From Lentisphaeria bacterium (GTDB lineage: Bacteria > Verrucomicrobiota > Lentisphaeria > JABSQK01), in NCBI GenBank assembly GCA_013215875.1, contig JABSQK010000021.1:477-64476 (forward strand): a stretch of 64,000 bases of DNA, written 5' to 3'. The notes beneath the pieces were generated by a model. The model did no database searches. It saw only the letters and a list, made by a program, of their open reading frames with translations, and had not been told where the DNA came from. The position numbers were made by a program, and so were the translations under genes. Of this stretch, positions 12,817 to 30,827 are shown piece after piece (within the stretch, counting starts at the first letter, position 1; each line of letters opens with the position of its first letter).

Positions 12817-14937
12817 ATGAAGTTCTTAGAAAAAATATTTGATAAAAAGCGCGCGGACTTTGAAAAAGGTGGAAAACTTGAGTTTTTCTATCCGCTTTTT
12901 GAAGCAAAGGAAACGTTTCTTTTTGTCCTTGGCCGACGCACCAAAGATGGTGGTGTTCACATCCGTGACAACATGGATTCAAAACGCCTCATGTCGATTG
13001 TTGTTCAGGCGTTAATCCCCTGTCTGCTCTTTGGTATATACAATGCGGGTTATCAGTTTTATGCGGGACAAGGAACAGAAGCGAGCATATTAGAGTGCTT
13101 TGCCAAAGGTTTATGGTATGGTCCAGAGCATAAATTTCAGGGTGTATTACCCATTCTTATTACGAGCTATGCAGTCGGCGGAGTCTGTGAATTGATATTT
13201 GCACTGATCCGCAAACATGAAATTAACGAAGGATTTTTAGTAACCGGAATGCTCTTGCCGCTCACCCTGCCACCAACGATTCCTATTTGGATGGTTGCCC
13301 TGGGTGTTATTTTTGGTGTGGTCATCGGTAAAGAAATATTTGGCGGAACGGGAATGAATATCTTCAATCCGGCCCTCACTGCCCGCGCCTTTCTCTTCTT
13401 CGCCTACGCACCTCAAATGTCCGGTGATGCACCGTGGATAATGACAGGCGCCGAGAGCTTTGTTGACGGGTTCACCAGTGCAACACCTCTGGCTCTCGTT
13501 TATGCACATGCAACAGATGCCGCAGCGTCTACCGGCATCGTTGAAGCCTTAACTAATTCTCATTACACCTGGACCAGCATGTTCCTGGGTCGAATCCCAG
13601 GCTCTATTGGCGAAACCTCAACCCTGCTCTGTTTTCTCGGTGCTGGATTGCTGATTGCCACAGGCATCGGTAGCTGGCGTGTAATGCTTGCCACCTTAAT
13701 TGGATGTGTCGGAATGGCATCCCTTATGAATATTTGTTCAAGCTCAGATATGAGCATGCTCAGCATTCCAGCGCACTATCATATTGTCATGGGTGGTTTT
13801 GCTTTCGGCATGGTTTATATGGCGACTGATCCAGTATCAGCGGCTCAAACGAACGCGGGTAAATGGGTCTATGGTATCCTAATAGGCTGTCTCCTGGTTA
13901 TCATTCGTGTGATAAATCCTGCATACCCGGAAGGCATGATGCTGTCCATTCTCTTTTTGAATGCATTTGCACCCTTAATTGATTATTGCGTCCTGCAATT
14001 ACACATCGCAAAACGGGCAAACCGTGTCACAAAAGCTCACCATAGTAATACGGAAATTGTTATTATTGTTGCCGTCCTAGCTGTCGTATGTGCATTTGCC
14101 CTTTCTATTGTCAGTAGTTCACTGCGTGATAAGGTTGCCGAAAATAAAAAGTATGATGTGCAAAAAAGTATCCTCGATTCCTTTAAGCTTATTGGTGAAG
14201 GCGAGGAAGAACTTGGCCCGGAAGAAAAACTGGTGAAAGGTGAAATCCTCGCATTTATTGGCGAACGCCTGGGCGTCATCGTTGTAAATACAAAAGGCGA
14301 TATACTTTCTAAAGAGGAACTGGCAGGATTCCTGAAAGCTCAGAAAGTCTCATTAGATGAAAAAATTAAAGACGAAGTGGAGCAAAAAAAAGCAGCCATT
14401 GATGAAGCAGTTTTGCGACAGAAACTAAAAAATGATCATAAAGCATTCAAAAACGAAACAGTTAAAGATATGTCCTTGCCTGTTTTCATCCTTTATAAAA
14501 AAGGGTCCGATAAAAGCATCATCGATGCGTATGCGATTCCTGTTTGGGGCAAGGGACTTTGGGGACCGATTCGCGGGTATTTATCCATCGAGCCAGATGG
14601 ACGGACAGTTCGCTATTTAACCATGCTCGGTGATCATAGTGAAACCCCTGGTCTCGGTAAGGAAATGGAACGGAAATGGTTTCGCGGAAATTTCACTGGC
14701 AAGAAAACCCATGATGATACTGGCAAGCTAGTTGCGATAACTGTTGTGAAAGGTAAAGCGCCCGCCGACGCAAAGCATAAAGTAACCGGCTTGAGTGGGG
14801 CAACAATCACCTCAGTTGGTATTACCAAGATGACAAAAAAATGCCTGGGTCTTTATGAAAAGTATTTCGATAATGTTGCAAAAAATGCTGCTAAAGATGC
14901 AGGGAAAAAGCCTGATACTAATGGAGGCACCAAATAA
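12817..14937 (+). CDS. nqrBC: Na+-NQR subunits B and C encoded as one fused polypeptide
   Basis: 706 aa. Residues 1 to about 400 are a polytopic NqrB with flavinylation-type motif DGFTSAT. The ORF then continues without a stop (…LQLHIAKRANRVTKAHHSNTEIVIIVAVLAVVCAFALSIVSS…) into an NqrC-like TM anchor and FMN domain with GLSGATITS. Confidence 0.85.
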   Translation: MKFLEKIFDKKRADFEKGGKLEFFYPLFEAKETFLFVLGRRTKDGGVHIRDNMDSKRLMSIVVQALIPCLLFGIYNAGYQFYAGQGTEASILECFAKGLWYGPEHKFQGVLPILITSYAVGGVCELIFALIRKHEINEGFLVTGMLLPLTLPPTIPIWMVALGVIFGVVIGKEIFGGTGMNIFNPALTARAFLFFAYAPQMSGDAPWIMTGAESFVDGFTSATPLALVYAHATDAAASTGIVEALTNSHYTWTSMFLGRIPGSIGETSTLLCFLGAGLLIATGIGSWRVMLATLIGCVGMASLMNICSSSDMSMLSIPAHYHIVMGGFAFGMVYMATDPVSAAQTNAGKWVYGILIGCLLVIIRVINPAYPEGMMLSILFLNAFAPLIDYCVLQLHIAKRANRVTKAHHSNTEIVIIVAVLAVVCAFALSIVSSSLRDKVAENKKYDVQKSILDSFKLIGEGEEELGPEEKLVKGEILAFIGERLGVIVVNTKGDILSKEELAGFLKAQKVSLDEKIKDEVEQKKAAIDEAVLRQKLKNDHKAFKNETVKDMSLPVFILYKKGSDKSIIDAYAIPVWGKGLWGPIRGYLSIEPDGRTVRYLTMLGDHSETPGLGKEMERKWFRGNFTGKKTHDDTGKLVAITVVKGKAPADAKHKVTGLSGATITSVGITKMTKKCLGLYEKYFDNVAKNAAKDAGKKPDTNGGTK

Positions 14938-22479: not shown

Positions 22480-23676
22480 ATGAATGGTAACTTACTAATA
22501 CATCTGGATTATTGCTTAACGCCAATGACGCGTCTAAACAATGCTGCCATTGTGATTGAAGACGGTATGATTCAGTCTGTCGGAGGGTTTTCTGCCTTTG
22601 TAAACCTTGAAGATTACGACATTATCGAGATGCCTGGCTGTTATGCAATTCCCGGCTTTCTTGATTCGCGACTCTATGGTGCAGCTAAATTTGACTGTAT
22701 GCATGCGGATAAGTCAGAAAAAATTAATGAAATGTCCACCGCCCTGGCAACACACGGTGTTACATCTTTTTTACCCACCACACAATCGTGTCCCCATGAA
22801 CAGCTTTTATCAGTAGTGGAAGCTTTGTCATATCGGGTCGATGACGAAAAGCTACCCGGAGCTGTGCCCTGTGGTATTCATATAGAGGGTCCCTACCTCT
22901 CAGAAGAAAAACGCGGCGCACACCCGGCTGAATATTTACAGCCTATCGACATTGCAAAAGCAAAAGAAATTATTGCAGCCGGCAGAGGAAAAATTAAGCT
23001 CTTCACATTTGCCCCGGAGCTCGACCTCAGTTTGGAATTAATCGATCTTTTAGTGGAACACGAAATTGTCCCTTGCATGGGGCATACGATGGCGGGTCAA
23101 GCCTCAATAATGAGAGCGATCGATGCGGGTGCTATTCGCTGTTCGCATCTCTATAATGGTATGGGCGCACTCGAGCAACGAAATGTCGGGCTCGCGGCAA
23201 TTGCCATGACAGATGACCGTATCTGGGTAGAGCTAATTCCAGATGGTGTGCATTTTCACTGGGGAATGCTGGAGCTTGCTTGTAGATCAATTCGCAAGGA
23301 TCGCATAATTGCCGTATCGAATTCCACCGAAGCAGCAGGCCTGGCGGATGGGGATTACCATTTAGGCGACAGAGATATTACTGTTAGGTATGGTAAAGCA
23401 ACACTCGAGGATGGTACCATTGCGGGTTCGACAAACTTCCTCGCGCAAAATTATCGTAATCTCATGGAACATAGCAATCTCAGTCATGAAGAAGCATCTG
23501 CCGCCTTTTCATTAAATCCTGCTTTAAGCATCGGTGCTCGAAATCGTGGAAAAATTAAGCCCGGTAAGCGTGCCGACATTACCATCCTGGATGACAATAA
23601 CAGAGTGAAAATGACGATTGTTGAAGGGCGCATTGTTTATCAAAATGAGAATTATCTTGCTGTGGCAAATACCTAA
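22480..23676 (+). CDS. nagA: N-acetylglucosamine-6-phosphate deacetylase
   Basis: Motifs PGFLDSRLYG, HIEGPYLSEEKRGAHP, FTFAPEL, CMGHT, HLYNGM, ELIPDGVHF. Start taken at ATG 22480 (MNGNLLIH). The last 4 codons (…ANT*) come from repeat-derived sequence. Confidence 0.85.
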   Translation: MNGNLLIHLDYCLTPMTRLNNAAIVIEDGMIQSVGGFSAFVNLEDYDIIEMPGCYAIPGFLDSRLYGAAKFDCMHADKSEKINEMSTALATHGVTSFLPTTQSCPHEQLLSVVEALSYRVDDEKLPGAVPCGIHIEGPYLSEEKRGAHPAEYLQPIDIAKAKEIIAAGRGKIKLFTFAPELDLSLELIDLLVEHEIVPCMGHTMAGQASIMRAIDAGAIRCSHLYNGMGALEQRNVGLAAIAMTDDRIWVELIPDGVHFHWGMLELACRSIRKDRIIAVSNSTEAAGLADGDYHLGDRDITVRYGKATLEDGTIAGSTNFLAQNYRNLMEHSNLSHEEASAAFSLNPALSIGARNRGKIKPGKRADITILDDNNRVKMTIVEGRIVYQNENYLAVANT

Positions 23677-23724
23677 TCATCAAGTTAGGTATTCTGATAT
23701 TATCATCCGGGATGACAATAACAG
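23604..23724. repeat. 121-bp repeat unit, copy 1 (last 60 nt of nagA coding sequence + 46-nt hairpin-containing segment + 15 nt GGATGACAATAACAG)
   Basis: Nearly identical to 27306-27426, with one T/G difference that I saw. Contains the 9-bp inverted repeat AATACCTAA / TTAGGTATT. Confidence 0.9.
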
Positions 23725-26255: not shown

Positions 26256-27305
26256 TTACATTGCATTCAACGCGATCCACAGCTCTCCCCAAACCTGAGA
26301 TTGCCTAACCTGGAGCGTCGCATTAACTACTTTAGCTATCGCTGCTTTTAAACTCGGTTTATGGATATACCGCTCTTTTACATAGCGCAATTCATCTTGT
26401 GTAACTTCTTCCCCACCTGCTAAAACTCGTTTTATACCAGTATTGGTCCCAAGAGCATACAGACACAACAGTAAGCGCTTTTGAAGAACATCGCGTGTTA
26501 AGATTTCCCTATCGCCATAGCTTTTCAAAATGCTTGTAAAATCAATCTGGTAATCAGCCTCTTTAAGAATATCCAGTAGGCTGGTCATCGGCCATTGCAC
26601 CATGACCTTTGATTTTAAATGTTTTAAAAATGAAGGTTCCACTTGTGGTACTAGTGGCGAAACTTTAATTAGGTTTTTACCATGTTGCCGAATCGATACG
26701 TCATTATTTTTAGACAACCCTGTATCTAGTGTGCGTAAAGCTATTTCCATACGGGACTGTAGATTCTGAATGAAATCCTCCGAGTTTTCTGGAAGCTTAA
26801 GCTCATCATAGTATGTGTTTCTTTTTTCTTCAAAATCTTCTGGAATATCTTCATCCGGATTGCGATATCGACGTGCTCCTTTAACCCATATTTCACGACA
26901 CCTCAAGCCATTTCTTAGTGCTTTCAATACACAAATTTCATAGCTTATACGGTTTATTTTCTCATCCTCAATAAGAAGCAGTTGCAATGACTTGGGCACA
27001 ATACCTTCAACGGGTAAATTATCTACTGACAAGATTCTTTGGTTAGAATCGAGAGATTTCAAAGTATTTACAGCATTAATAATAGGGCGATGATGTTGAT
27101 TATTACAGCGAAATATTAAAGCATTAATTAGTGGGGACATCATTCGTCGGTAATGGCTTTTAAACGAATTGCGGGCTACGTGCTGGACCTGCTCTATATA
27201 AGATGGGCTGCTAGCTTCAAATTCTCTAACCAGATCTCTGAATATGCTTTCGCTGACGACTGGATAAAGTGCATCTCGGATTTTCGAATCAGGATTCTCC
27301 AATAC
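26256..27305 (-). pseudogene. tnpA: Tn3-family transposase, middle fragment (about aa 316-675), truncated before the DDE catalytic domain
   Basis: LENPDSKIRDALYPVV…YRRMMSPLINALIFRCNN…ISYEICVLKALRNGLRCREIWVKGARRYRNPDEDIP…LYALGTNTGI…QVWGE. It then diverges and stops where Tn3 TnpA has WGGGEVASADG. Confidence 0.8.
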
Positions 27306-27486
27306 AGTGAAAATGACGATTGTGGAAGGGCGCATTGTTTATCAAAATGAGAATTATCTTGCTGTGGCAAATACCTAATCATCAAGTTAGGTATTCTGAT
27401 ATTATCATCCGGGATGACAATAACAGAGTGAAAATGACGATTGTGGAAGGGCGCATTGTTTATCAAAATGAGAATTACCTTGCTGT
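27306..27486. repeat. 121-bp repeat copy 2 (27306-27426) plus partial copy 3 (27427-27486), which runs into a probable ancestral nagA end (…NENYLAVTS*)
   Basis: Direct sequence comparison with 23604-23724. Copy 3 diverges after CTTGCTGT into AACAAGTTAA. Confidence 0.9.
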
Positions 27487-27500
27487 AACAAGTTAAGTAC

Positions 27501-28733
27501 TCAGGTACGATATTCCGCATTAATTTTCACATACTCATAACTTAAGTCACAGGTCCATGCAGTGTATTCACCGTCGACCAGGCCAAGGTCAACCTCGAGA
27601 AAAATTTCATCCCTGTTGATTAGTTTGTACATCTCGTCTTCTGATAGCCCCGCATCCTGCCCTGATTTTACCACCTGTACGCCCGAGTAATACAGATTGA
27701 ATTCACCCGTATTTATATTAACTCCCGAGTAGCCCGCGGCATCGAGGATCCGCCCCCAATTGGGGTCTGCACCAAACCAGGCCGTTTTACATAGCAGTGA
27801 ATTGGCAATTGCTTTTGCACAGGTTTCAGCATCCCCATCATTTTCTGCGCCGACGACTTTTACCTCCACAAATCGTGTCGCTCCCTCAGCATCAAGGATC
27901 AACATCCGGGCCAGTTCGGCGGCCACATAGTTAAAGGCTTCTTGAAATTTTGCCGCTTCGGCGGACCCTCTACGAATCATTGAATTACCTGCTAAGCCAT
28001 TGGCCATACAAATAAAACTGTCGTTGGTACTGGTATCGCCATCTATGGTTATACGATTAAAGGATTGATTCAGTGATTGATCAAGTATCTCCGATAAGAG
28101 GCCCTCTTCGAGAAGCACATCCGTAGTGATATAGGCCAGCATTGTTGCCTCTTTTTCTGCTGTCTTCATCTTTGGAGCGATCATCCCGGCCCCTTTAGAC
28201 ATGCCGCCTATAATTACATCGGTTCCATCAATATCAATTTTAACTGCAATGGATTTTGCTACTGTGTCCGTGGTCATTATCGCTTCTGCAGCTTTTGCTC
28301 CACCCGTCGCATTTCTGGCCTCGCAGCATTTTTTAATCCCGGCTTTTACAATTTCCATTGGCAAAGGCACGCCGATTCTACCCGTTGAAAAAACAAGTAC
28401 TTCTGATGGATCTATATTTAAAAGGTCGGCTGTATCTGCAGCCATATGCGAGGCATTTGTCCAGCCCTGGCGACCTGTACAGGCGTTGGCATTGCCACTA
28501 TTTATAATGCAGGCATGGATGGTCTTTGAATTTTTATGCACCTGTTTGCAATAGACGACCGGAGCTGCAGCAAATGCATTCTGGGTATATGAGCCCGCAA
28601 ACTGACAGGCAGTGGCCGAATAAATTACAGCCATATCTTCTTTGCCGCTTTCTTTCAGTCCAGCAATGATTCCCGCTGCTTCAAAACCCTGGGCTGAACA
28701 AACGGTTCCATTTTCTAATTTTTCATAATGCAT
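27501..28733 (-). CDS. argJ: bifunctional glutamate N-acetyltransferase / amino-acid acetyltransferase
   Basis: 410 aa with the autoprocessing site context KEATMLAYITTD. The rest of the sequence is ArgJ-like throughout. Confidence 0.9.
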   Translation of the reverse strand: MHYEKLENGTVCSAQGFEAAGIIAGLKESGKEDMAVIYSATACQFAGSYTQNAFAAAPVVYCKQVHKNSKTIHACIINSGNANACTGRQGWTNASHMAADTADLLNIDPSEVLVFSTGRIGVPLPMEIVKAGIKKCCEARNATGGAKAAEAIMTTDTVAKSIAVKIDIDGTDVIIGGMSKGAGMIAPKMKTAEKEATMLAYITTDVLLEEGLLSEILDQSLNQSFNRITIDGDTSTNDSFICMANGLAGNSMIRRGSAEAAKFQEAFNYVAAELARMLILDAEGATRFVEVKVVGAENDGDAETCAKAIANSLLCKTAWFGADPNWGRILDAAGYSGVNINTGEFNLYYSGVQVVKSGQDAGLSEDEMYKLINRDEIFLEVDLGLVDGEYTAWTCDLSYEYVKINAEYRT

Positions 28734-29058
28734 CTTCTAAATTACCTCTAAGCTGCCAATTCATAAACCATGTGAGACGGACTAATATAATTTTATTTCA
28801 GCACATTTCGAAAAAAAATGAATAATATACCCCCGCCATTTACCAGATTCGTTTTTTATGGCTAATATTTGCAGTTCTGCCTCTTGAGGAAACTATCCTG
28901 GATAATTCATAAACCATCTACTACAAGCGCGAACTGCTGCAGTATTAGCAGTTTTATAACTGACGATGATTTTGAAGTGCTTCAGCCTGAGCCTCAGTTG
29001 AACTGCTTGAATAATAGCTGATTGCGTCTATCTTTGGCCCTTCAACGAGATGATTTAG

Positions 29059-29115
29059 ATGACGTTTATAAGCAATTATTTTTATTACTGGTTTAGCCGC
29101 AGGAGGAATTCCTGA
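29059..29115 (+). CDS. candidate attenuation leader peptide MTFISNYFYYWFSRRRNS
   Basis: 18-codon ORF that I translated myself. Seven of 18 residues are aromatic (3 Phe, 3 Tyr, 1 Trp), six of them consecutive (codons 7-12). The stop lies inside and adjacent to the antiterminator arm. Located 82 nt upstream of the DAHP synthase start. Confidence 0.6.
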   Translation: MTFISNYFYYWFSRRRNS

Positions 29116-29172
29116 GTCGGTAACGATGACTTTATTCCTCCTCTGAAACATTCGTTTCAGGGGATTTTTTTT
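29101..29172 (+). promoter_or_regulatory. mutually exclusive antiterminator / terminator structures upstream of DAHP synthase
   Basis: Antiterminator: AGGAGGAAT (29101-29109) pairs with ATTCCTCCT (29134-29142). Terminator: CCTCTGAAAC (29140-29149) pairs with GTTTCAGGGG (29154-29163), loop ATTC, followed by T8 (29165-29172). The two structures share 29140-29142. Confidence 0.6.
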
Positions 29173-29196
29173 ATATTTATTACAAAAGGACAGTAC

Positions 29197-30237
29197 GTGG
29201 AAACTACACAAGATTTGCATATAAAAAGCATCCGGAAGCTGATTACTCCGGCGGAATTAAAACAACAAATTCCAATGACTGAAGCCGCCAATGATACCGT
29301 GGTCACTGCACGCAAAACCGTGAAAAAAATTATGGCCGGCGGCGATGATCGTTTCATTGTTATTACCGGTCCTTGCTCAATACATGACCCTGAAATTGCC
29401 TACGACTATGCCCGCCGACTGAAGCCCCTCATCGACAAATATGCCGATAAACTTGTGATCTTGATGCGCGTTTATTTTGAAAAACCACGCACCACTGTTG
29501 GCTGGCGTGGATTGATTAATGACCCGGGCCTTGATGGTACACGGGATGTTGAAAAAGGCATTGCCTTGGGACGTGAAATTCTCATGAAAATCAATGAAAT
29601 GGGGGTCGCAGTCGCAAGTGAAGTACTCGACCCGGTGACGCCTCAATACATGGCCGACCTCATCAGCTGGTCAGCTATTGGCGCCCGTACTACGGAATCT
29701 CAAACCCATCGCGAAATGACCAGTGGGCTCTCCATGCCAGTGGGATTTAAAAATAGTACCGAAGGCAACTTGCAGGTTGCGATCGATGCGATGATCTCTG
29801 CTATGCATGAGCACAGTTTTCTTGGAATCGACCAAAATGGCAATACATCAATTGTTGAAACCATGGGAAATAAATGGTCGCATATCGTTCTTCGTGGTGG
29901 TCGCAGTGGTGTAAACTTTCATGCAGAAAATATAAAAGAGACTGAGATTGCCATGGAAAAAGCAGGTGTAAAGCCATTGATCATGGTGGATTGCAGTCAT
30001 GCAAATTCCAATAAACGTTTCGATTTGCAGCCCGAAGTTTACCGTGATGTACTTGCTCAGCGGGCAAGTGGTACGCGTTCGATTATCGGCGTGATGCTCG
30101 AATCCAATATAAATGAAGGCAAACAAAGTATTCCGGACGATTTGTCAAAATTGCAATACGGTGTATCAGTGACAGATGGATGCATCAGTTGGGAAGCAAC
30201 TGAAGAGCTACTCCAGGAATCATACGACCAGTTATAA
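29197..30237 (+). CDS. aroG: 3-deoxy-7-phosphoheptulonate (DAHP) synthase, class I
   Basis: 346 aa, GTG start 7 nt after AAGGA. Motifs FIVITGPCSIHD, KPRTTVGWRGLINDP, VDCSHANS. The isozyme (Phe/Tyr/Trp-sensitive) cannot be assigned. Confidence 0.9.
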   Translation: METTQDLHIKSIRKLITPAELKQQIPMTEAANDTVVTARKTVKKIMAGGDDRFIVITGPCSIHDPEIAYDYARRLKPLIDKYADKLVILMRVYFEKPRTTVGWRGLINDPGLDGTRDVEKGIALGREILMKINEMGVAVASEVLDPVTPQYMADLISWSAIGARTTESQTHREMTSGLSMPVGFKNSTEGNLQVAIDAMISAMHEHSFLGIDQNGNTSIVETMGNKWSHIVLRGGRSGVNFHAENIKETEIAMEKAGVKPLIMVDCSHANSNKRFDLQPEVYRDVLAQRASGTRSIIGVMLESNINEGKQSIPDDLSKLQYGVSVTDGCISWEATEELLQESYDQL

Positions 30238-30251
30238 TCAAGGAGATTGAA

Positions 30252-30827
30252 ATGCCAAGACCACCGATATTGCCTATACCTGACAGAGAAGCAATTTTTA
30301 ATAGCGGCACAAGCTGGGATGACTGGCTGGCAAATCCAGATGAAGCAAGCCAGGGTGCAAGCCTCAAGGAATTTTACGAATCATACGAACTAAGCGATGC
30401 AACAAAGGCCAGCCTGCAAGCACTCGATGGCAAGGTAAATATCATCGCCATAGCCGAAACATGGTGCGGCGATGTGATTCGTCATACGCCCCTACTGATT
30501 AAAATGGTGGAAGCTGCTGGTGATAAGGCAGACATTCGTTTCGTTACCCGAGCGCAGAATACAGACTTTTTTACACGCTTTGTTACCAATGGCGGCGAAG
30601 CAATTCCAAAATTTGTTTTTTGCAGCCGCGAGTTTGTTGAGGTCGGTAATTGGGGCCCTATGTCAACGACGCCTCGCAAATGGATAGCCCAGGGAAAAGC
30701 CGCTGGCGATGTCGGCGCTGCCCGGAAAAAGGTCGGGGAATTCTACACGAATGACAACGAAGTGGAAGCGACTAAAGATTTTCTCGAGCTATTTGAAACT
30801 GCGACCTTAACAAGCTTCCCGGAATAA
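30252..30827 (+). CDS. thioredoxin-fold family protein
   Basis: 191 aa with AETWCGD (single-Cys Trx-like motif). SD AAGGAG upstream. Confidence 0.6.
   Translation: MPRPPILPIPDREAIFNSGTSWDDWLANPDEASQGASLKEFYESYELSDATKASLQALDGKVNIIAIAETWCGDVIRHTPLLIKMVEAAGDKADIRFVTRAQNTDFFTRFVTNGGEAIPKFVFCSREFVEVGNWGPMSTTPRKWIAQGKAAGDVGAARKKVGEFYTNDNEVEATKDFLELFETATLTSFPE
30784..30827. repeat. 44-bp direct repeat, copy 1 (the 3' end of the thioredoxin-like CDS)
   Basis: TCGAGCTATTTGAAACTGCGACCTTAACAAGCTTCCCGGAATAA recurs at 32959-33002 with one C/T change. Confidence 0.9.

Follow-up and report, generated by a model that had tools for sequence, protein, structure and literature searches.

A putative ribosome-mediated attenuator with an aromatic-rich leader upstream of a class I DAHP synthase gene in a Lentisphaeria bacterium

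Leader, terminator and alternative helix upstream of aroG

The 64,000-nucleotide stretch of contig JABSQK010000021.1 analysed here (the window), from a Lentisphaeria bacterium, encodes a class I 3-deoxy-D-arabino-heptulosonate 7-phosphate (DAHP) synthase of the AroF/G/H type (aroG; 29197-30237, plus strand). The region directly upstream carries an aromatic-rich leader and an intrinsic terminator that together probably form a ribosome-mediated transcription attenuator. The gene, the proposed target of regulation, starts with GTG and has AAGGA 7 nt upstream. Its product scores above the cutoffs of the NCBIfam models TIGR00034 aroFGH (E 1.5e-146) and NF009395, matches Pfam PF00793 and falls under the cutoffs of the isozyme-specific AroG and AroH models; TIGR00034 confirms the class I assignment made in a first-pass annotation of the bare sequence.

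The leader open reading frame (ORF; 29059-29115, plus strand) comprises 18 codons and a stop (ATG at 29059, TGA at 29113-29115) and encodes the peptide MTFISNYFYYWFSRRRNS. Seven of its 18 codons specify aromatic residues (three Phe, three Tyr and one Trp), and codons 7-12 (29077-29094, plus strand; TAT TTT TAT TAC TGG TTT) form the uninterrupted run Y F Y Y W F. Reading and a script both confirmed this ORF as the first-pass annotation had described it, with coordinates that proved correct to within 1 nt. The leader does lie upstream of the GTG, at a distance of 81 nt from stop codon to start rather than the 82 nt originally counted. Among 1921 short ORFs of 6-45 codons on both strands of the whole window, a single one contains six consecutive Phe, Tyr or Trp codons, namely this leader; the next best contains four.

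Downstream of the leader, a terminator scan located a hairpin at 29139-29164 (plus strand), with 11 bp including one G-U pair and a 4-nt loop (TCCTCTGAAAC-ATTC-GTTTCAGGGGA; -15.3 kcal/mol). It is followed by a U-tract of eight T (29165-29172, plus strand) that ends 24 nt 5' of the GTG. The terminator and its closeness to the gene therefore stand as first described, with the stem drawable as 11 rather than 10 bp and the distance 24 rather than 25 nt. Since argJ (27501-28733, minus strand), the gene upstream of the leader, is divergent and no plus-strand gene that the terminator could serve precedes it, the terminator is not the end of an upstream gene.

The segment AGGAGGAAT (29101-29109, plus strand), within leader codons 15-17, pairs perfectly over 9 bp with ATTCCTCCT (29134-29142, plus strand), as a script verified. 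This putative antiterminator overlaps the end of the ORF as proposed, but not its stop codon, which starts 4 nt after the 5' arm. It also shares bases with the 5' arm of the terminator, and these number four (29139-29142) instead of the three (29140-29142) originally given. The helix displaces the four basal terminator pairs that adjoin the U-tract (29139-29142 / 29161-29164) and leaves a residual stem of 7 bp ending 5 nt from the U-run. At intrinsic terminators, a hairpin set back from the U-run should strongly lower termination. The antiterminator loop holds a small inner hairpin (GUCG-GUAA-CGAU; 29116-29127, plus strand) that is part of the minimum free energy (MFE) structure. Nascent RNA up to 29138 has as its MFE a local hairpin around the palindrome AGGAATTCCT (29096-29121, plus strand), a possible anti-antiterminator or pause element.

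We assessed the alternative helix by keeping the terminator fixed and shuffling the 70 nt upstream with dinucleotides preserved. Of 5000 shuffled versions, 8 gave a perfect helix of 9 bp or longer that shared 3 nt or more with the 5' arm of the terminator (p about 0.0016), and the leader and the alternative helix are not chance features. These two background tests bear on a reading without any sensing, in which the terminator is constitutive and leaky, or belongs to a structured 5' untranslated region, and the ORF and 9-bp complement are by-products of AT-rich sequence. The intergenic region is 37% GC, a composition in which TTT and TAT codons are frequent, as that reading expects; the shuffles and the window-wide codon-run count speak against it.

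A Shine-Dalgarno (SD)-like segment, GAGATGAT (29047-29054, plus strand), lies 4-9 nt 5' of the leader ATG. Seven of its 8 positions, read from the sequence, agree with GAGGTGAT of the SD consensus, and the sister lineage described below shows no change in it; we infer that it acts as the leader's SD, although the signal is weak. Neighbouring genes carry AAGGA and AAGGAGA as SDs. Two other roles for the antiterminator arms were considered and rejected. AGGAGG at 29101 would be the SD of a downstream mini-ORF (ATG at 29126, six codons) at a spacing of 19 nt, which rules it out, and AUUCCUCCU, the 3' arm as RNA, has just 4 bases complementary to the aroG ribosome-binding site that it might have masked as an anti-SD.

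A candidate -35 element, TTGAAT (29007-29012, plus strand; 4 of 6 positions matching TTGACA), and a candidate -10 element, TATCTT (29029-29034, plus strand), stand in one conserved block with a 16-nt spacer. The pair matches the consensus at 8 of 12 positions, below the 9 of 12 threshold of the scan. The block, GCTTGA-T N16 TCTATYT, recurs with identical spacing in four loci: the window, the sister-lineage locus L161, and L001 and L002, two Lentisphaeria loci whose enzyme is 56-57% identical. A sigma-70-like promoter at 29007-29034 would thus probably start transcription near 29041-29043, upstream of the leader ATG. The promoter-like block of L001 (2905-2965) and L002 (2905-2960) stands without a leader ORF, and short inverted repeats flank its -10 element (ATGAGAC...GTCTCAT in L002, GAGTC...GACTC in L001). 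These repeats may be a repressor operator and hence a different regulatory solution for aroG.

Conservation in a sister lineage and recurrence in other phyla

The protein database holds a single 96%-identity cluster for this enzyme (P0001), with three members and two leader haplotypes. The sister lineage is represented by contigs L161 (Logan SRR7467837) and L167 (JGI 3300022707), which share the window's gene order argJ ... aroG-trx9 and encode an ArgJ and a thioredoxin-like protein 95% identical to those of the window. Fourfold-degenerate sites of argJ, aroG and trx9 are just 62-75% identical between the two lineages, so neutral divergence is substantial. Across the 194 nt from promoter to terminator (29003-29196), the lineages are about 96% identical, with six substitutions and two indels between them. 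Both antiterminator arms are invariant, the terminator stem and U-tract are intact, and the run stays fully aromatic. Conservation of the leader ORF and pairing segments in relatives, a point raised by the first-pass annotation, was found in L161 and L167 despite 25-38% divergence at fourfold sites. Upstream of 29003 the window and sister sequences are unrelated, with homology beginning 4 nt before the candidate -35.

The few differences are informative. In the sister lineage a 2-nt insertion before 29059, together with 29060 T>A, abolishes the ATG, and a new in-frame ATG arises three bases upstream, giving the peptide MKTCRSNFFYYWFSRRRNS. Changes at 29066 and 29069 alter codons 3 and 4, outside the aromatic run (F3C and I4R), and a change at 29078 turns Tyr7 into Phe, so that the run reads F F Y Y W F. 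Such a pattern is that expected of a leader peptide whose translation, not sequence, matters. The remaining differences include 29021 A>T in the promoter spacer, 29116 G>A in L161, by which the small inner hairpin exchanges a G-U for an A-U pair, and replacement of the terminator loop ATTC by TTCG on an invariant stem. The contigs L161 and L167, from independent samples, have the same sequence in this region, so an assembly artefact is excluded.

The same comparison bears on a possible role in trans, besides or instead of cis attenuation, for the terminated transcript of ~130 nt or for the 18-residue peptide. Full conservation of the C-terminal SRRRNS and of the RNA arms would suit such a role, and rnTrpL and peTrpL of Sinorhizobium offer precedents (PMC7298713, PMC7968998). 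Against it, the N-terminal residues vary freely (F3C, I4R), no target is known, and the C-terminal codons that are conserved are those of the antiterminator arm, where constraint on the RNA explains their conservation. We regard a role in trans as highly improbable, the least probable account of this region.

Beyond the sister lineage, the leader was not found in the nearest other relatives (L163-L166, ~60% identity), whose intergenic regions are short, and no aromatic ORF was found upstream of aroG in the other Lentisphaeria loci L001, L002 and L062. Absence of the leader from the closest relatives, at 60% identity, agrees with the AT-rich by-product reading; conservation of about 96%, against 62-75% at neutral sites, does not. 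Because L163-L166 and other Lentisphaeria lack the leader, such elements appear to have a rapid turnover and probably several origins.

A survey of the wider enzyme family covered the 450 nt 5' of the gene at 160 homologous DAHP synthase loci and counted 126 unique upstream regions, with the antisense strand and the region further upstream as controls. A short ORF with an aromatic run occurred in 27 of 126 sense regions, as against 2 in the antisense and 3 in the further-upstream controls. Requiring a terminator as well left 14 of 126 sense regions and none in either control. The first-pass annotation had proposed a search of this kind, for short ORFs rich in Phe, Tyr and Trp upstream of orthologous aroG genes in relatives. 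With this enrichment before homologous genes (14 versus 0 antisense versus 0 distal) added to the shuffle, background and conservation results, a structure without sensing is very unlikely, and attenuation by a translated leader remains the better account.

Leaders outside the Lentisphaeria came from several groups. The Chloroflexota loci L003, L005 and L043 have leaders with MKQNYFTYYYYF..., Chloroflexota/Dehalococcoidia leader peptides read MKQNYFTYYYYFMKEGACSRV and MRQRKFTYYFYYGNEWVNLHL, and one on unassigned metagenome contigs reads MTDHFADRYLYYWFYFYRTCLPVLR. Those of Desulfobacterota read MSRFFADVYFWYYFYITRPPGVS, MSNFSGSANRYYYYYYYTCGLPAAG and MTLHTGNWSTYFSFYFYFYGPGLPGVR, with runs ...YFWYYFY... 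(L041, L059), ...YYYYYYY... (L050, L055) and ...YYWFYFY... (L118, L134, L136). The Chloroflexota and Desulfobacterota leaders precede enzymes of the same family as the window's, at 50-56% identity, and share its layout: the run is followed by a GC-richer ORF tail, which pairs with the 5' arm of the terminator, and then by the terminator itself.

In each of these cases a strong terminator follows the leader stop codon by 19-33 nt, save at L009 (70 nt); the distance in the window is 23 nt. We also folded nascent RNA ending at the terminator loop while a ribosome occupied the aromatic run. At 10 of 11 other loci, with L009 as the exception, the 5' arm of the terminator then paired with the last leader codons, through a segment between -21 and 0 relative to the stop codon; the window has the same layout. 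Several of these leaders differ from the window's in that their terminators are tandem or much stronger. Equilibrium folding with the ribosome blocked showed no switch at the highly stable terminators of Desulfobacterota and was less informative than folding of the nascent RNA. As the peptides and RNAs cannot be aligned with the window's, the leaders of other phyla probably arose independently. We found no description of such leaders in Lentisphaerota, Chloroflexota or Desulfobacterota in the literature searched, which did not extend to subscription-only comparative-genomics papers.

Two further observations came from these loci. Two tandem intrinsic terminators follow Desulfobacterota-type leaders in L041 (2901-2969), L059 (2890-2960), L118 (990-1059) and L136 (1405-1472). 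Tyr-rich short ORFs precede gammaproteobacterial DAHP synthase genes in L065 (2799-2846; Colwellia sp.), L121/L122 (1307-1354) and L126/L129/L130 (1330-1377), with peptides MYNLQYRYYYLPYFN, MHILQDLYYYLPYFI and MPVQQNRYYYNPFFC. Just weak hairpin and T-run candidates follow them (for example CTAAGTCACTCTTAG TTCTTTT in L126), and they may be weaker attenuators in culturable bacteria.

Ribosome position and the proposed attenuation of aroG

We compared the energies of the two structures by folding. The MFE of 29040-29200 combines the 9-bp helix with the shortened, 7-bp terminator stem (z = -2.2). For the transcript 29042-29172, the antiterminator fold and the full-terminator fold, the latter including the local hairpin 29096-29121, both come to -33.7 kcal/mol. 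Both of the structures proposed in the first-pass annotation are therefore energetically plausible, yet they are equal in energy, which makes the RNA bistable on its own. When MFE structures were computed step by step along the growing transcript, the local hairpin formed first and the antiterminator replaced it once 29142 had been transcribed.

A simulation with the nucleotides under the ribosome blocked, limited to equilibrium folding, then linked the two structures to ribosome position. With Y7, F8, Y9, Y10 or W11 in the A site, the 9-bp helix was kept and the basal terminator pairs formed with P 0.17-0.45. When the A site was occupied by F12 or the stop codon, these pairs formed with P 0.87-1.0, giving the full terminator. 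Selection of structure by ribosome position, the core of the earlier proposal, is thereby borne out in the model for stalls at Y7-W11 as against the stop codon, whereas stalling at F12 is predicted to bring no antitermination. Likewise, terminator and antiterminator do compete, but they are not fully exclusive, with only four basal pairs contested. The effective stall positions in the model are 7, 9 and 10 for Tyr, 8 for Phe and 11 for Trp, which makes it plausible that the leader senses all three amino acids together.

From these elements we infer a transcription start, translation of the leader, its coupling to transcription and a physiological response that would run as follows. Transcription would start near 29042, and the first ribosome would be on the 18-codon leader while the polymerase crosses 29134-29172. 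With Tyr-, Phe- and Trp-tRNAs charged, the ribosome would reach the last codons or the UGA (29113) and cover AGGAGGAAU (29101-29109), leaving AUUCCUCCU free to enter the full 11-bp terminator at the U8 tract, and transcription would stop before aroG. When a charged aromatic tRNA is short, the ribosome would stall within Y7-W11, about 12-24 nt 5' of the antiterminator arm, and AGGAGGAAU would pair with AUUCCUCCU as soon as the latter is made. The four basal terminator pairs would be lost, and the residual 7-bp hairpin, 5 nt from the U-run, would permit read-through into aroG and probably into the thioredoxin-like gene behind it.

A bistable RNA could also be set by something other than a ribosome. 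In that case the attenuator would be real, and an RNA-binding protein, an uncharged tRNA or a small ligand would control it, with the short ORF incidental. The weak ribosome-binding signal of the leader fits this possibility, as does conservation of 29116-29133 and of the inner hairpin, which could be a binding site. However, a cmscan search of 28000-30500 at E up to 10 matched no Rfam leader (Phe_leader and Trp_leader included), T-box or riboswitch family and returned only three sub-threshold unrelated hits, including NsiR1 (18.1 bits) on the terminator itself. Control without a ribosome would also have to accommodate a reading frame restored after a 2-nt insertion, a changed run codon that stays aromatic and an aromatic run unique in the window, and it leaves the non-homologous aromatic short ORFs at the same position in other phyla unexplained. 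We consider it unlikely.

In aggregate, these results favour ribosome-mediated attenuation of aroG transcription, to which we assign a probability of about 75%. The uniqueness of the ORF, the significance of the helix, conservation, the simulation, the promoter-like block and recurrence before homologous genes support this reading of the first-pass annotation, although the two structures are not fully exclusive and the unusualness that it had claimed for the design does not hold in general.

Several points weigh on the other side. The leader's SD-like signal is weak, and the promoter matches the consensus at only 8 of 12 positions. Only two leader haplotypes are available, neither stem shows two-sided covariation, and the relatives L163-L166, L001, L002 and L062 lack a leader, which makes the element lineage-specific. 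In the folding models, the terminator and antiterminator share no more than 4 nt and both full folds have the same energy, so that the switch would depend on kinetics. Three-way sensing is uncertain, because Trp has one codon in the leader and stalling at F12 is expected from the model to have no effect. The F-Y-F leader of Corynebacterium glutamicum is reported to respond to Phe and not to Tyr (PMC11802643).

Attenuation by a leader peptide is the classical mechanism of trp, pheA and pheST. The logic proposed here is that of E. coli pheL-pheA and trpL-trpEDCBA, in which a leader ORF of cognate codons precedes alternative terminator and antiterminator structures and a ribosome at the stop codon masks the antiterminator arm (summarised in PMC11802643). 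The E. coli leaders serve terminal-branch genes, whereas the window's would serve the entry enzyme of the pathway with codons of three amino acids. Its antiterminator also differs from theirs in contesting only four basal pairs, and there is no clear separate 1:2 hairpin, only the local hairpin at 29096-29121.

A closer parallel is C. glutamicum aroR, which encodes a leader with the motif Phe-Tyr-Phe in front of aroF, a DAHP synthase gene, and was predicted from RNA-seq (PMC4046766). It is reported to raise transcription under Phe limitation, whereas Tyr availability had no effect (Neshat et al. 2014, as summarised in PMC11802643); engineers have removed aroR to deregulate aroF (PMC7356990). 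Like the window's element, aroR is a short mixed-aromatic leader directly before a DAHP synthase gene that combines ribosome stalling with transcription attenuation. It differs in belonging to Actinomycetota and in its F-Y-F motif, the Lentisphaerota peptide being longer, not evidently related to it, and with a six-codon run that includes Trp; the comparison with aroR is by description only. The literature searched yielded C. glutamicum as the only precedent for an attenuated DAHP synthase leader, and neither Naville & Gautheret 2010 nor Seliverstov 2005 mentions aro genes. The first-pass annotation had called a mixed-aromatic leader at this enzyme an unusual design. That holds in comparison with E. 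coli, but is overstated in general, because aroR-aroF is a tested precedent, to which the cases in our survey can be added.

The mechanism is thus a textbook one with a precedent at a DAHP synthase gene, and the window's element is a new, lineage-specific case that overturns no concept. Comparison of the loci suggests that it is the first example in the Planctomycetes-Verrucomicrobia-Chlamydiae (PVC) group and that the design is common and convergent, present in about 11-21% of sampled homologous loci with apparently several independent origins. We advance a broader view only tentatively, rating it somewhat below even odds: that mixed Tyr/Phe/Trp attenuators on class I DAHP synthase genes are widespread, repeatedly invented and largely undescribed in uncultured Lentisphaerota, Chloroflexota and Desulfobacterota, and that the window's is a true three-amino-acid integrator for possibly the only DAHP synthase of its host, replacing the isozyme-plus-repressor scheme of E. 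coli.

If the attenuator operates as outlined above, a 115-nt RNA element would report aromatic tRNA charging directly to the committed step of aromatic biosynthesis, and would reveal regulation in a PVC-group bacterium for which there is otherwise no regulatory information. Such elements would be useful for metagenome annotation and for the study of attenuator origins, and could provide compact, portable sensors of aromatic amino acids for metabolic engineering, as aroR already does in Corynebacterium.

Neighbouring genes and other features of the window

A Thioredoxin_9-family gene (trx9; PF14595; 30252-30827, plus strand) follows aroG by 14 nt and has its own strong SD. The order aroG then trx9 is common to the window, L161, L162 and L167, and the spacing suggests that the two genes are probably co-transcribed. 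The placement of a Thioredoxin_9 gene and a shikimate-pathway gene under one putative attenuator is a pairing without explanation.

The locus points to an uncultured Lentisphaerota bacterium of the PVC group without a close sequenced relative as the source. The nearest named homologues of its ArgJ are nearly all from Lentisphaeria/Lentisphaerae metagenome-assembled genomes (52-56% identity), as are the best genomic matches of the DAHP synthase (Lentisphaeria, 56-57% identity), and scans of genomes and metagenomes returned no relative of the enzyme above 57% identity. The ENA metagenome contig L162 carries a locus identical to the window's.

An 88-codon ORF on the minus strand (28954-29220), across the leader region, was considered and found to be without support. 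Between argJ and the aroG promoter, the sister lineage has an extra 173-codon ORF (L161 2117-2638, L167 1117-1638; minus strand) that has no Pfam match and no counterpart in the window (about 28820-29002).

Elsewhere, the window encodes an Nqr operon with an apparent NqrB-NqrC fusion (12817-14937, plus strand) of 706 residues, in which an NQR2/RnfD/RnfE domain is joined to a C-terminal FMN_bind domain. A 126-nt direct repeat occurs at 23599-23724, 27301-27426 and 27422-27547, with 98% identity and a degenerate third copy. It flanks a 3.7-kb segment that holds a truncated Tn3-family transposase ORF (PF01526; 26256-27335, minus strand). In L161 an amidohydrolase gene directly adjoins argJ, and the segment therefore looks like an insertion in the window's lineage.

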